A DNA stretch of 12,750 nucleotides from a virus, in UHGV virus genome UHGV-1339304, one strand, 5' to 3'. How positions within the stretch are numbered: position 1 is the stretch's first letter; each line of letters opens with the position of its first letter. The notes below the pieces were generated by a model. That model searched no databases, had not been told where the DNA came from, and saw nothing but the letters and a program-made list of their open reading frames with translations. Shown piece by piece: positions 3,748 to 8,376 of this stretch. The translations under genes and the position numbers were made by a program.

Positions 3748-3800
3748 TCTTTCTACAATCAGGCCTCAAAACTGTTGCCGCAGTCTTGAGGCTTTTCTTT
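3748..3800 (+). ncRNA. oop: oop-like antisense RNA overlapping the cII 3' end
   Basis: Short transcript predicted from the pO-like promoter to the intrinsic terminator at 3761..3800, antisense to the last codons of cII. Same arrangement as lambda oop. Confidence 0.5.
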
Positions 3801-4037
3801 TGTCAGCACCATGGCTACTTTCTTTGCCAGCTCCGCTAATTCCTCGTCTTCAACACCCCACTCCAGCACAGCCAGAAGCATGGCCATCTTTGGGATAAAG
3901 CTGTCTTTCCATCGCGAAATTTGCGATTCATTGATCCCTAATGCATCAGCAACCTTTCGCTGACCACGTACAGCAATTCGATTTAGGATGTTGCTTGTAA
4001 TTGCATTCGCTTTCTTGCGAGTACTTGTAAGTTGCAT
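3759..4037 (-). CDS. cII: CII transcriptional activator
   Basis: 92 aa. INESQISRWKDSFIPKMAMLLAVLEWGVEDEELAELAKKVA matches lambda CII (VDKSQISRWKRDWIPKFSMLLAVLEWGVVDDDMARLARQVA). Sits between cro/nutR and the O-like gene. Confidence 0.85.
   Translation of the reverse strand: MQLTSTRKKANAITSNILNRIAVRGQRKVADALGINESQISRWKDSFIPKMAMLLAVLEWGVEDEELAELAKKVAMVLTKEKPQDCGNSFEA
3761..3800 (+). terminator. intrinsic terminator of the oop-like RNA
   Basis: GCCTCAA (3763..3769) pairs with TTGAGGC (3786..3792), with an inner ACTG/CAGT stem in the loop, followed by TTTTCTTT. Confidence 0.65.
3991..4004 (+). promoter_or_regulatory. pRE-type CII-binding motif TTGC-N6-TTGC
   Basis: TTGCttgtaaTTGC on the strand antisense to cII, inside the cII 5' coding region and oriented toward cro/cI. 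The downstream segment ATATGTAAGTATTTCCTTAACTAAT resembles lambda pRE. Confidence 0.55.
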
Positions 4038-4095: not shown

Positions 4096-4139
4096 TCCCG
4101 CATTTCGGCGGGAATGAGGACCATGACTGTTAAAGAGCG
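4096..4139 (-). promoter_or_regulatory. nutR (boxA CGCTCTTTAACA, boxB TCCCGCCGAAATGCGGGA)
   Basis: Minus strand: boxA is the reverse complement of 4128..4139 and boxB of 4096..4113. Immediately downstream of the cro stop. The boxB is identical to the nutL boxB. Confidence 0.6.
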
Positions 4140-4145
4140 GTGTTA

Positions 4146-4340
4146 CTATTTGTTTTTCTTGTTGCTTGGGAAAGGACGAACTTCCTCTCCAATCACACTG
4201 CCATCAGGCTTTACCGTAACCATGATGTTACGGCCTGCCAGAATGGCCTTGCTGATAGCGCACTGGATTACACCAAAGTCACTGGCTGCTTTAGCCTGTC
4301 CATGGATTTTGGCGTAATCGGCAAGTGTCATTCGAATCAT
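4146..4340 (-). CDS. cro: Cro repressor
   Basis: 64 aa from ATG 4340 (GGAG SD). [62 protein letters not shown] is closely similar to lambda Cro ([63 protein letters not shown]). Confidence 0.9.
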
Positions 4341-4369
4341 ATGCACTCTCCGTTATTAACCATGAACAA

Positions 4370-4446: not shown

Positions 4447-5163
4447 ATGGAAAATAAAAAATCACTGACGACAGAACAGCTGGAAGACGCTAAGCGGCTT
4501 AAGGCTTTGTATGAGTCAAAAGAGAAAGAATTGGGGATAACCCAATACTCAATCGCTGATGAACTGGGTATCACCCAAGGAGCGGTAGGGCATTATCTTA
4601 ATGGCAGAAACGCGCTAAACGTTGAGGTTGCATCTGGTTTTGCACGACTGTTGCAAGTCTCAATTGCTGATTTTAGCCAGTCAATTGCTGCCAAGGTTGC
4701 AGAACAGGCAGAAAGCCTTAAGAGCGATGCCAACGTAAGGTATGCAGGGGAATACAGAGCAGGAAAGAGGTATCCGGTGTTAAGCAGTATCCAGGCTGGC
4801 TCGTGGTGTGAAGCATGCGAACCATACACCATTAAAGACATAGATGTTTGGCTTGAGTCTGACGCGCATATTCAAGGTAATGCGTTCTGGCTTAAAGTGG
4901 AAGGTGATTCAATGACGGCACCGGTTGGGTTAAGCATTCCAGAGGGAACATTCGTTCTTTTCGATACCGGAAGGGAGGCGATCAACGGCAGCTTGGTCAT
5001 AGCAAAACTTTCTGACTCTAACGAAGCAACATTCAAGAAGCTGATAATCGACGGCGGAAATAAATACCTCAAGGGACTTAATCCTGCATGGCCTCTCGTG
5101 CCAATCAATGGAAACTGCAAGATTATAGGCGTTGCAATTGAGACAAAACTAAGGCTGGTTTGA
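4447..5163 (+). CDS. cI: CI repressor (HTH N-terminal domain plus LexA/S24-type autocleavage C-terminal domain)
   Basis: 238 aa. LTTEQLEDAKRLKALYESKEKELG and FWLKVEGDSMTAPVG...EATFKKLIIDGGNKYLKGLNPAWP align with lambda CI ([24 protein letters not shown]...FWLEVEGNSMTAP...[23 protein letters not shown]). Confidence 0.9.
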   Translation: MENKKSLTTEQLEDAKRLKALYESKEKELGITQYSIADELGITQGAVGHYLNGRNALNVEVASGFARLLQVSIADFSQSIAAKVAEQAESLKSDANVRYAGEYRAGKRYPVLSSIQAGSWCEACEPYTIKDIDVWLESDAHIQGNAFWLKVEGDSMTAPVGLSIPEGTFVLFDTGREAINGSLVIAKLSDSNEATFKKLIIDGGNKYLKGLNPAWPLVPINGNCKIIGVAIETKLRLV

Positions 5164-5635: not shown

Positions 5636-5720
5636 AATATCCTTTGTATTCATTTGCTTATCATTATTTCATCAAAAATAAATACCTTGGGTATTTACAC
5701 AATAAAATACCTACAGTATT
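5636..5720. promoter_or_regulatory. OL operators: AATATCCTTTGTATT (5636..5650), AATACCTTGGGTATT (5681..5695), AATACCTACAGTATT (5706..5720)
   Basis: Same AATAC-N5-GTATT dyad as OR. The last two sites are 25 bp apart, as at OR. Confidence 0.55.
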
Positions 5721-5722
5721 CT
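5694..5722 (+). promoter_or_regulatory. pL promoter (-35 TTTACA, 17 nt spacer, -10 TATTCT)
   Basis: Hexamers read directly; overlaps the OL sites; same -10 as pR; points toward nutL and N. Confidence 0.5.
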
Positions 5723-5768: not shown

Positions 5769-5809
5769 GCTCTTTAACATTGATGGGATTGTCCCGCCGA
5801 AATGCGGGA
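5769..5809 (+). promoter_or_regulatory. nutL (boxA GCTCTTTAACA, boxB TCCCGCCGAAATGCGGGA)
   Basis: boxA-like 5769..5779 and boxB hairpin 5792..5809 downstream of pL and upstream of N. The boxB is identical to the nutR boxB. Confidence 0.6.
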
Positions 5810-5916: not shown

Positions 5917-6189
5917 ATGACAGTAGTCATTACATATCTGGCTGACGATAACGCCAGAAATCGCCGCAGAGCACGCAGACAGGCTCAACGTGAACAGGCA
6001 ATGCAAGAGCAGCGACTGGCGCGAAAAATTGCGCTAAAGCTCTCTGGTTGCGTCAGAGCAGACAAAGCAGCATCGCTAGGAAGCCTTCTCAGCAAGAAGG
6101 CAGATGAATGCAGTGGAAGTATTTGCCTGCCAAACGTAGCTATTTACGCAGCAGGCTACCGGAAATCAAAACAACTGACAGCCAGGTAA
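5917..6189 (+). CDS. N: N-type transcription antiterminator
   Basis: 90 aa with an N-terminal arginine-rich motif NARNRRRARRQAQREQ. GGAGG SD 5 nt upstream. Directly downstream of pL/nutL. Confidence 0.7.
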   Translation: MTVVITYLADDNARNRRRARRQAQREQAMQEQRLARKIALKLSGCVRADKAASLGSLLSKKADECSGSICLPNVAIYAAGYRKSKQLTAR

Positions 6190-6192
6190 GTG

Positions 6193-6421
6193 ATGAATCA
6201 GACATACATTCCATCATNNNNNNNNNNNNNNNNNNNNNAAGCAGAAAGCAAAGCCCCGCAAGCAAGCCATAAAGGACGCTAAGGCAGAGGTTATTGATCA
6301 AGCAATACAATTGCTCAGGGAGGAGTTAAGAAGTGGCAAGCTCGAAGGAATGATGATGCCCTATCAGCGCGGATATCTATCGGCGATTAGTAAGTTGGAA
6401 GTATTGAAGAGTGAATTATGA
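6193..6421 (+). CDS. hypothetical protein interrupted by an N-run (frame across the gap unverifiable)
   Basis: ATG 6193 opens MNQTYIPS before the gap. After the gap only one frame is open (from 6239), reading KQKAKPRKQAIKDAKAEVIDQAIQLLREELRSGKLEGMMMPYQRGYLSAISKLEVLKSEL and stopping at 6419..6421. With 21 Ns as written the two frames do not match. Confidence 0.3.
6218..6238. other. run of 21 N (masked or unresolved bases)
   Basis: Literal n characters in the sequence. Confidence 1.
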
Positions 6422-6483
6422 ACTATCTGGAATTTCCGGATGGTTCATTGTTTTGGCAGCAAACCACTTATTTGAGGTGATAT

Positions 6484-6735
6484 ATGGAGTTTCATGAAAG
6501 TGCGATTTGTGATTTTCGCGCTAACGCAAATTCAGTAAAACCACAGCCAATTGCAGTTCTTTTTAAAACAATGGGTGCGTGGGCTGTTTTATGCTTCGCC
6601 TCTGATGACACTGACGCAAGAATGGCAATAGGCCAAGAGATGGAGATGGACCCGACAAACGATGAATTCATAATTTATGGCGCTCCATCTAATTACTTAC
6701 TTGATACCTGCAACATTTACAACAAGGCTGCCTGA
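6484..6735 (+). CDS. hypothetical small acidic protein
   Basis: 83 aa ORF with a strong GAGGTGA SD 5 nt upstream of the ATG. Confidence 0.55.
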   Translation: MEFHESAICDFRANANSVKPQPIAVLFKTMGAWAVLCFASDDTDARMAIGQEMEMDPTNDEFIIYGAPSNYLLDTCNIYNKAA

Positions 6736-6871
6736 TGGTGGCCTTTATTTTTGGCATAAACAACAGAATAAACATTGCACTGTGTATTCATTCCAACGAG
6801 TGAATACACGGAGCAATGTCGCTCGTAACTAAACAGGAGCCGACTTGTTCTGATTATTGGAAATCTTCTTT

Positions 6872-6897
6872 GCCCTCCAGTGTGAGGGCTTTTTTTT
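6872..6897 (+). terminator. strong intrinsic terminator within the pL operon (tL-like)
   Basis: GCCCTC-CAGTGT-GAGGGC followed by eight T. Confidence 0.7.
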
Positions 6898-6910
6898 AAC
6901 GGAGTAAACG

Positions 6911-7159
6911 ATGATAAAAACTGATTATCCTGCAGAACTTAAACAAAAAGTAATAACAGCAATTAAATGCTCTTTTATCTCATGTCGTACAGATGAAGAA
7001 CGACATGTCGTTGAGTGTGCAATTGTCGAGTTTCTCACAGCGATGGAATTTACCGCAGCAGAATCAATAGACGTATTAAAGCAATCAGACGGAAATGATA
7101 TTGAAACAGATGATGTTATTGACCGGCTAATAAAATCATTCGAAGAAGAAATAGAGTAG
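6911..7159 (+). CDS. hypothetical small acidic protein (Ral-slot)
   Basis: 82 aa with GGAG SD 6 nt upstream. D/E-rich C-terminal half. The antisense ORF 6925..7200 is Ser-rich and was rejected. Confidence 0.6.
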   Translation: MIKTDYPAELKQKVITAIKCSFISCRTDEERHVVECAIVEFLTAMEFTAAESIDVLKQSDGNDIETDDVIDRLIKSFEEEIE

Positions 7160-7190: not shown

Positions 7191-7216
7191 AACGCTTCAC
7201 TCGAGGCGTTTTCGTT
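7191..7216 (+). terminator. candidate intrinsic terminator
   Basis: AACGCTTC-actc-GAGGCGTT (8 bp with one G-U pair) running into TTTTCGTT. A weaker GCCGC-ctgagc-GCGGC hairpin lies at 7159..7174. Confidence 0.4.
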
Positions 7217-7242: not shown

Positions 7243-7377
7243 ATGATGCACTTTCAGCTCGCGGGTAGCGGCGTCATGTCCGCTTTCTACCCGCACGAAT
7301 CTGAATTATCACGCCGAGTTAAACAATTAATCAGAGCAGCAAAGAAACAACTGGAGGCGTTATGCGCAATGAAATAG
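7243..7377 (+). CDS. cIII: CIII-like (FtsH/HflB inhibitor)
   Basis: 44 aa with AAGGAG SD. HFQLAGSGVMSAFYPHESELSRRVKQLIRAAKKQL follows the lambda CIII pattern (QYAIAGWPVAGCPSESLLERITRKLRDGWKRL). Overlaps the next gene as cIII overlaps kil in lambda. Confidence 0.6.
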   Translation: MMHFQLAGSGVMSAFYPHESELSRRVKQLIRAAKKQLEALCAMK

Positions 7378-7514
7378 CCATCAATCACCAGATGCTTCGT
7401 GCTGCACAGAACAAAGCAGTAATAGCCAGATTTATTGGTGATTCCAAAATGTGGCTTGAAGCAAATAAAGCGATGAAATCAGCTATCAACCTTCCGTGGT
7501 ATCGCAGGAAATGA
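7362..7514 (+). CDS. Kil-like small protein (candidate host cell-division inhibitor)
   Basis: 50 aa (MRNEIAINHQMLRAAQNKAVIARFIGDSKMWLEANKAM...). The call rests mainly on position directly after cIII with overlap, as for lambda kil. Confidence 0.4.
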   Translation: MRNEIAINHQMLRAAQNKAVIARFIGDSKMWLEANKAMKSAINLPWYRRK

Positions 7515-7669: not shown

Positions 7670-7760
7670 TGGCGACCGCGAAGGAATGCGGGTATGCCTT
7701 AATTTGTCCCGAGTAGAAGTATTAAATCAGCGTTATTTCCTTGGGCCATGTCCATTCTGA
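7590..7760 (+). CDS. hypothetical 56 aa protein
   Basis: AAGGAG SD 5 nt upstream of ATG 7590. Overlaps 7511..7669 by 80 nt in another frame. Confidence 0.35.
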   Translation: MSLATTVKESKLQRRMYTQKALWYRHNGDREGMRVCLNLSRVEVLNQRYFLGPCPF

Positions 7761-7770
7761 GAACAATAAT

Positions 7771-8376
7771 ATGAGCAAAGAATTTTACGCAAGGCTGGCA
7801 GCTATTCAGGAGAATCTGAACGCGCCAAAGAATCAATACAACTCATTCGGCAAATATAAATACAGAAGCTGCGAAGACATTCTTGAGGGTGTTAAGCCGT
7901 TACTGAATGGCCTGTTTTTATCAATCAGCGATGAAGTTGTGTTGATTGGTGATCGGTATTACGTGAAAGCAACGGCAACTATTACTGATGGCGAAAACAG
8001 TCATACAGCAACCGCTCTTGCACGAGAGGAAGAAAGCAAGAAAGGAATGGATTCTGCACAAGTTACGGGAGCTACAAGCTCTTATGCACGCAAGTATTGC
8101 CTCAATGGTTTGTTCGGCATTGATGATGCGAAAGATGCAGATACCGACGAGCATAAACATCAGCAGAACGCAGCAGCAAAGCAGTCAAAACCATCACCTA
8201 CACCTGAACAGGTTCTAAAAGCATTCACTGACGCAGCAATGCAGAAAAACACCGTAGAAGAGCTTAAACAGGCGTTCGCCAAAGCATGGAAGATGCTCGA
8301 AGGCACACCGGAGCAGCACAAAGCGCAGGACGTTTACAACATCAGACGAGACGAATTAGAAGGAGCGGCTGCTTAA
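7771..8376 (+). CDS. erf: Erf-family single-strand annealing recombinase
   Basis: 201 aa from ATG 7771 (the ORF-track start at 7741 is an upstream TTG). The N-terminus MSKEFYARLAAIQENLNAPKNQYNSFGKYKYRSCEDILEGVKPLL and the ATSSYARKYCLNGLFGIDD block match what I recall of the ERF family (P22 Erf type). Confidence 0.7.
   Translation: MSKEFYARLAAIQENLNAPKNQYNSFGKYKYRSCEDILEGVKPLLNGLFLSISDEVVLIGDRYYVKATATITDGENSHTATALAREEESKKGMDSAQVTGATSSYARKYCLNGLFGIDDAKDADTDEHKHQQNAAAKQSKPSPTPEQVLKAFTDAAMQKNTVEELKQAFAKAWKMLEGTPEQHKAQDVYNIRRDELEGAAA

Follow-up and report, generated by a model that had tools for sequence, protein, structure and literature searches.

A homologue of the lambda sRNA PreS, with a conserved hairpin directly upstream of it, in the pL operon of a lambdoid prophage

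The closest described relative of the element reported here is LPR1, an sRNA of phage lambda that was described in 2024-2025 and renamed PreS (Silverman et al., bioRxiv 10.1101/2024.10.31.621285; published version Mol Cell 85:4678, 2025). Its 3' end is the terminator tL2a, whose hairpin and U-tail bind Hfq in lambda; PreS is Hfq-enriched and gives two northern bands, of ~88 nt and ~68 nt, solely during the lytic cycle, when pL fires, with none in lysogens (bioRxiv 10.1101/2024.10.31.621285). Its open central seed pairs with host mRNAs: PreS activates translation of dnaN by opening the ribosome-binding site, so that beta-clamp levels and phage DNA replication rise, and it represses alaS; its regulation in lambda is backed by compensatory-mutation evidence (bioRxiv 10.1101/2024.10.31.621285). 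We analysed a 12.75-kb stretch of prophage DNA (hereafter the window) in which the corresponding element, already known as PreS plus tL2a, occupies part of an intergenic gap. It agrees with lambda PreS/LPR1 at 85 of 87 positions and has the same place in the operon, the same terminator (tL2a), the same seed nucleotides and the same predicted pairing with dnaN, whereas its U-tail is U8 (GAU6 in lambda), its flanking genes are phrog_2471 and an anti-restriction ORF (ral and ea10 in lambda), and the lower stem of its putative precursor is perfect (one C/A mismatch in lambda). The hairpin and T-run are those of lambda tL2a (tL2 cluster, ral-bet), which was historically seen as an N-overridden transcription stop only; here, as in lambda, the terminator doubles as the 3' module of an sRNA.

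Two other groups of prophage sRNAs are comparable. DicF, from the dicB operon of the Qin prophage, is likewise an Hfq-dependent sRNA of a prophage early or immunity-proximal operon that derives from a longer transcript and has a terminator-type 3' end, but it has no sequence or covariance-model similarity to PreS and targets ftsZ and others rather than dnaN and alaS. DicF reportedly arises through cleavage by RNase E and RNase III together with termination. An earlier note on this DNA, made from the letters alone, had drawn the analogy with DicF; it holds for the release of an sRNA from a prophage operon transcript, but not for family, since a search with the DicF covariance model of Rfam gave no match here, either at its gathering threshold or with E <= 10. 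Among the sRNAs of EHEC, AgvB/AsxR and the other EcOnc members are also Hfq-bound and carried by lambdoid prophages, but they occupy the pR' moron site, measure 51-60 nt and are unrelated in sequence (Tree et al. 2014). An EcOnc identity was rejected: Tree et al. list nothing for the Sp5 copy of the element; their EcOnc20 is the N leader, whose place is elsewhere, and EcOnc22 belongs to tail genes. Rfam 15 returned no match in the whole window at gathering thresholds, and sub-threshold noise only at E <= 10; the PreS family is therefore not curated there. The best local match, STnc280 (20.5 bits vs a gathering threshold of 80), was discarded, as it resembles the terminator only, and BLAST with the STnc280 consensus found only two short unannotated phage-labelled fragments and a Salmonella chromosome, with no sign of a lambdoid-phage relative.

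The element sits within the N-antiterminated leftward (pL) early operon of a lambdoid prophage, the + strand of the window being the leftward direction. This context, which the earlier note had proposed, is confirmed by the gene order of PHROG matches, by a pL-like promoter and by two boxA/boxB pairs on opposite strands that serve N antitermination in this prophage as nutL and nutR (Table 1). The placement, on the pL strand between N/ral-type genes and ea10/cIII, is syntenic with that in lambda, VT2-Sakai and HK97, and the lambda counterpart of the gap is the ral-ea10 intergenic region. Lying downstream of the 6484-6735 gene, PreS effectively counts as a 3'-UTR or intra-operon sRNA. That gene ends in a block whose homologue is the 3' end of lambda ral (6724-6775, +, covering its last bases and 3' UTR), which runs from ...AAGGCTGCCTGA through a weak hairpin with T5 into the CA-rich stretch AAACAACAGAAUAAACA; since the ORF belongs to a different family (phrog_2471), a mosaic joint must lie in the last ~20 nt of the gene. 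In ral-type relatives the weak hairpin (6724-6752) belongs to this conserved intergenic block; it is absent from the HK97 and mEp043 types. Two further structures were seen in the operon. A hairpin of 14 bp with TGTTTTGG after it (6418-6448, +), in the interval from N to the following ORF, is a candidate tL1-type terminator or processing structure. Just 5' of cIII, a terminator-like hairpin AACGCTTCACTCGAGGCGTT with TTCGTTATGC (7191-7210, +) has the sequence that directly follows PreS in HK97 and Salmonella phage 103203_sal5, and thus probably belongs to a conserved cIII leader.

Table 1. Positions of the element and of its surroundings in the window
Feature	Positions	Strand	Remarks
cII	3759-4037	-	PHROG match
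nutR boxA/boxB	4097-4138	-	identical to nutL boxA GCTCTTTAAC and boxB CCCGCCGAAATGCGGG
cro	4146-4346	-	PHROG match
cI	4447-5163		PHROG match
pL-like promoter	5694-5722		promoter scan
nutL boxA/boxB	5769-5808	+	boxA GCTCTTTAAC, boxB CCCGCCGAAATGCGGG
N	5917-6189		PHROG match
upstream pL-operon gene	6484-6735	+	phrog_2471, E = 2.9e-61; equivalent is VT2-Sakai H0090
weak terminator-like hairpin and T-run	6724-6752	+	overlaps stop codon of upstream ORF; z = -2.3 only
extended precursor helix (putative)	6772-6819	+	~21 bp with A/A mismatch; lower stem is upstream ACAUUGC : PreS nt 3-9
hairpin GTGTATTCATTC-caac-GAGTGAATACAC	6782-6809	+	12 bp, one G-U pair, loop CAAC
PreS (LPR1) sRNA homologue, full-length	6811-6897	+	~87 nt; 85/87 positions as in lambda LPR1
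processed short form LPR1-S (putative)	6830-6897	+	~68 nt; 5' end estimated from published band size alone
PreS seed core (lambda lpr1 seed deletion segment)	6846-6862	+	primers P838/P839, P888/P889, P970/P971
intrinsic terminator, lambda tL2a homologue	6872-6897	+	6-bp GC-rich stem, 6-nt loop, U8; Hfq-binding 3' module of sRNA
downstream pL-operon gene	6911-7159	+	phrog_14587 'anti-restriction protein', E = 9.2e-48; lambda ea10 position
cIII	7243-7377		PHROG match
kil	7362-7514		PHROG match
erf	7741-8376		PHROG match

The gap between the two flanking ORFs measures 175 nt, as the earlier note had it, and the coordinates that it gave for a hairpin with one G-U pair and for a terminator with a 6-bp GC stem and T8 are correct. 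The terminator, GCCCTC-cagtgt-GAGGGC (6872-6889) followed by T8 (6890-6897), was also recovered by a terminator scan of the window. The hairpin is stronger than first described: it grows to 14 bp by the pairs C6780-G6811 and U6781-G6810, and beyond an A/A mismatch a further 7 bp can form between ACAUUGC (6772-6778) and GCAAUGU (6813-6819). The 22-nt arms of this extended hairpin are the longest inverted repeat across the window. Folding, which the earlier note had suggested as a check, gave -28.8 kcal/mol for 6770-6822 against a mean of -8.9 for shuffled sequences (z = -8.2; 0 of 200 shuffles as good), and z = -4.45 for the entire 175-nt gap (200 shuffles).

BLAST of the gap returned 331 phage records, mostly at 95-99% identity, among them lambda, HK97, Stx phages of the 933W/VT2-Sakai type and Salmonella phages. 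We took the limits of PreS from primers P810, P1103, P1104, P968 and P969 of Silverman et al.: the published +1 corresponds to GAGCAATGTCGCTCGTAACT (P810, P1103), the 3' end to ...GAGGGCGATTTTTT (P1104), and the full-deletion arm P969 ends in ...GAGTGAATACACG, directly before GAGCAATG. The lambda +1 so placed (GAGCAATG, window position 6811) derives from cloning, in vitro transcription and deletion primers and may be 1-2 nt off. Between these limits the window is 97.7% identical to lambda LPR1 (85/87, no gaps; lambda coordinates ~complement(33925..34011)), and both differences fall in the U-tail (GCUUUUUUUU in the window vs GCGAUUUUUU in lambda). Silverman et al. count as PreS sequences with at least 92% identity to lambda LPR1 and at most 3 gaps, and the window copy thus ranks as a full-length homologue. 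It also lies where PreS lies, on the pL strand downstream of N and upstream of ea10/cIII, and it ends in a GC-rich 6-bp terminator stem and U8. Judged by sequence, synteny, terminator and seed, the element is a member of the PreS family. The earlier note had read the element as a candidate sRNA or a processing site belonging to the pL operon of a prophage, and the same sequence in lambda indeed yields the Hfq-bound PreS/LPR1. Its estimate of a stable RNA of roughly 115 nt that includes the hairpin, however, has to be shortened to ~87-88 nt, because the published +1 (G6811) is part of the last base pair of the hairpin, at its 3' foot, and the hairpin is thereby excluded.

The predicted fold of PreS consists of a 5' stem-loop, an open seed region and the terminator. 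The segment deleted in the lambda seed mutant is identical between the window and lambda, and the triplets of the mutations M1 (CUG, 6850-6852) and M2 (GAA, 6860-6862) are unchanged. RNAduplex on the whole of PreS vs dnaN gave meaningless full-length pairings, so that only the seed was used; a duplex of -32.3 kcal/mol is then predicted between PreS nt 31-63 and positions -48 to -11 of E. coli MG1655 dnaN, with AAAGAAGAUUU and AAUCAGAACA as perfect blocks. The seed criterion of the family is therefore supported computationally, by intact M1 and M2 triplets and by predicted pairing with the dnaN leader.

The sole ORF that fits wholly inside the gap, as the earlier note had observed, runs from 6816 to 6899 and has 27 codons rather than the 26 counted there (MSLVTKQEPTCSDYWKSSLPSSVRAFF). 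It spans nearly the whole sRNA and the equivalent frame is open in lambda, which would suit a small protein with PreS as its mRNA or as a dual-function RNA. Yet only 2 nt separate GGAG from the AUG, and in the mature RNA the leader would be 5 nt long; the C-terminus varies freely with the tail and terminator variants and is replaced altogether in a chimeric variant (see below), and there is no protein-level signal, the body being invariant. The ORF is probably non-coding, and we give the coding alternative almost no credence.

Conservation was assessed over 140 loci with the PreS core, drawn from IMG/VR and from a set with a single genome for each species. The earlier note had named covariation across related prophages among its checks, and a hairpin unconserved in relatives as part of what would count against its reading. 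The hairpin is present in all 140 loci and ends exactly 1 nt before the PreS +1. The hairpin of the window (type A; 12 bp, loop CAAC, -15.7 kcal/mol) is found in ~130 of them, and eight carry a second form, that of mEp043 (type B; 11 bp with a UACG loop, -14.9 kcal/mol). When 11 representatives are aligned, both partners of 8 of the 12 pairs differ between type A and the mEp043 type and yet stay paired, as compensatory changes; the type B hairpin is essentially one replacement event, and a random 8-bp arm swap rarely stays complementary. All cells of this alignment (100%) are paired, a level reached by 0 of 500 shuffles, and slid controls were 20-57% paired. In the type A arms the count of minor-allele haplotypes is 0.14 per nt, similar to that of the PreS body, with ~16-20 per nt just upstream of the hairpin and 11 in the terminator loop; the terminator stem is kept among relatives while its loop and tail vary. 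Homology blocks in HK97 and in 933W-type phages start at 6777, at the hairpin, and stop at 6898, at the T-run. Co-presence, arm conservation, compensatory changes and mosaic boundaries thus all indicate that hairpin, PreS and terminator form one conserved, exchangeable unit. The linkage of hairpin and PreS in 140 loci, the invariance of the arms and the compensatory type B replacement are newly added here.

The lower stem behaves differently. Only the window-type allele, at 2 of 140 loci, has CAUUGC:GCAAUG fully paired, and this stem was for that reason rejected as a conserved feature; the HK97 and mEp043 types use GC plus (G)CGA:UCG(C) pairings in its place. In predicted folds of all upstream classes, PreS nt 3-4, together with nt 5-9 or nt 9-12, pair with upstream sequence below the hairpin.

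The module of hairpin plus PreS occurs in 2237 of 5426 (41%) complete E. coli genomes, with up to six copies per genome, and also in Stx-converting phages. Among the matches listed, none of 12 RefSeq records has an annotated feature under the module match. One prophage, that of E. coli VL40 (L151, 1500-1570), keeps the hairpin and lower stem (…GGAGCAAT) and has lost the rest of PreS and the terminator, with cIII directly after; the hairpin may therefore have a role independent of PreS, and this role may be, for example, protection of the 3' end of the upstream mRNA.

These data bear on whether the region of this prophage makes a functional trans-acting RNA at all, or is only an operon-internal terminator of the tL2a type with a stabilising hairpin in the 3' UTR of the upstream gene. 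For a long time tL2a was known simply as a stop signal in the early left operon of lambda (bioRxiv 10.1101/2024.10.31.621285), the HK97 and HK75 records annotate a terminator alone at this site, and the PreS-less hairpin of VL40 survives. A terminator and a stabilising hairpin do not, however, account for the 61 nt between them, which are essentially invariant (~140 loci, 2237 E. coli genomes) within mosaic flanks, nor for the fact that the identical lambda sequence is a validated Hfq-bound regulator with compensatory-mutation evidence. We regard this alternative as very improbable. As a whole, the evidence is best explained if 6811-6897 is a copy of PreS, an Hfq-dependent trans-acting sRNA in the N-antiterminated pL operon, and of this we are highly confident.

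Several irregular copies were met among the loci. A variant that looks like a product of modular sRNA evolution (L092, 4639-4740, +; L125, -; L056, -) has the first 55 nt identical to PreS, that is, the 5' stem-loop and the first half of the seed, and continues into ...CAUUCCUUGAUAGUCUUGCCGCUCUAUAUGGGCGGCAUUCUUUU, with a different terminator and without the dnaN-pairing block AAAUCUUCUUU. The Stx2a phage Stx2_131033 (L006, ~1300-1400) probably carries a disrupted PreS, broken inside the seed after UUGUUCUGA by TGAACCGCCCCGGGAATCCTGGAGAC..., which looks like an end of the IS3 family (IS629-like). Exact PreS matches in Pseudoxanthomonas, Shewanella, Bradyrhizobium, Kitasatospora, Neobacillus and others (L127-L147, from the scan of one genome per species) lie in many cases on contigs of about 48.5 kb or on tiny contigs at ~1x coverage. 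We judged them to be contamination of the assemblies by lambda control DNA and rejected them as real distribution of PreS; such contamination could inflate published host ranges of PreS.

How the 5' end of PreS arises is a separate matter. PreS might be a primary transcript from a promoter of its own in the hairpin region, the hairpin then being an element of the DNA or of the promoter. In favour, a G stands at the published +1, as is common for starts, the authors number from '+1', and the accessible portion of the preprint text demonstrates no processing and nowhere mentions a hairpin, stem or RNase in LPR1 biogenesis (bioRxiv 10.1101/2024.10.31.621285). Against this, a scan of the window found no sigma-70-like promoter before 6811, and inspection found no -35/-10 match there, with at most 3/6 in any hexamer tried; the -10 position falls inside the hairpin arm that is replaced wholesale in the mEp043 type with pairing kept; and LPR1 is silent in lysogens, as a pL-dependent RNA would be. 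An own promoter before 6811 was rejected on the negative scan and on the replacement of the relevant bases, and we consider a primary transcript unlikely. The lack of a promoter, the replaced -10 bases in type B and the silence in lysogens argue instead for excision of PreS from the pL transcript at the hairpin foot.

The linkage of the hairpin to PreS and its conservation suggest that it is a processing determinant for PreS; lying just upstream of the mature RNA, it probably helps to cut PreS out of the long early transcript. We propose that PreS, having no promoter of its own, would be released from the long pL transcript by a cut at the hairpin's 3' foot. There G6811, the published +1, pairs with C6780 as the last base pair, 2 nt beyond the 12-bp stem; because G6811 closes the helix and PreS nt 3-9 form the lower stem, the cut site would lie inside double-stranded RNA, and a site so embedded favours RNase III over RNase E. 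RNase III would thus cut at the helix foot, with RNase E as the alternative, and the mRNA upstream of the cut would keep the hairpin as protection of its 3' end. In the released RNA, nt 1-6 of PreS (GAGCAA) could, by prediction, pair anew with UUGUUC (nt 35-40) on the seed's edge, and a second cut near nt 20 would yield the 68-nt form, without the nt 1-6 pairing and with a fully open seed. An RNase III site of the N-leader or sib type would have a helix of about 20 bp or more, a cut inside the double strand and dependence on rnc; the window allele forms ~21 bp with one A/A mismatch and has the published +1 inside the helix, and elsewhere the lower stem is imperfect or different. One point counts against the model: the lower stem that would make a canonical substrate of at least 20 bp is perfect in the window allele alone and weaker or different in other lineages. 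So does the VL40 prophage, which kept the hairpin without PreS. Moreover, N-modified polymerase should read through tL2a, which counts against simple 3'-end formation during antitermination. In the literature that could be searched, nothing relevant turned up on the tL2 cluster or on sites for RNase III within the pL operon. The full proposal, that the hairpin is a dedicated maturation module at which an RNase III cut makes the PreS 5' end, caps the upstream mRNA and switches nt 1-9 from the precursor's lower stem to the mature 5' stem-loop, is accordingly a tentative one that we would sooner doubt than assert. If true, the sRNA would be released, and its seed exposed as the 68-nt species, in step with pL transcript processing and not with transcription initiation.

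That a reader of sequence alone could spot such an sRNA element has been shown here, and the practical value of the finding is modest. Recognising copies of PreS matters for annotation, as they occur in so large a share of E. coli genomes and have no family in Rfam 15. PreS is an sRNA that reprograms host replication and was overlooked even in the best-studied phage, and the hairpin before it, strictly co-conserved and maintained by compensatory change, is the next target for work on PreS biogenesis.
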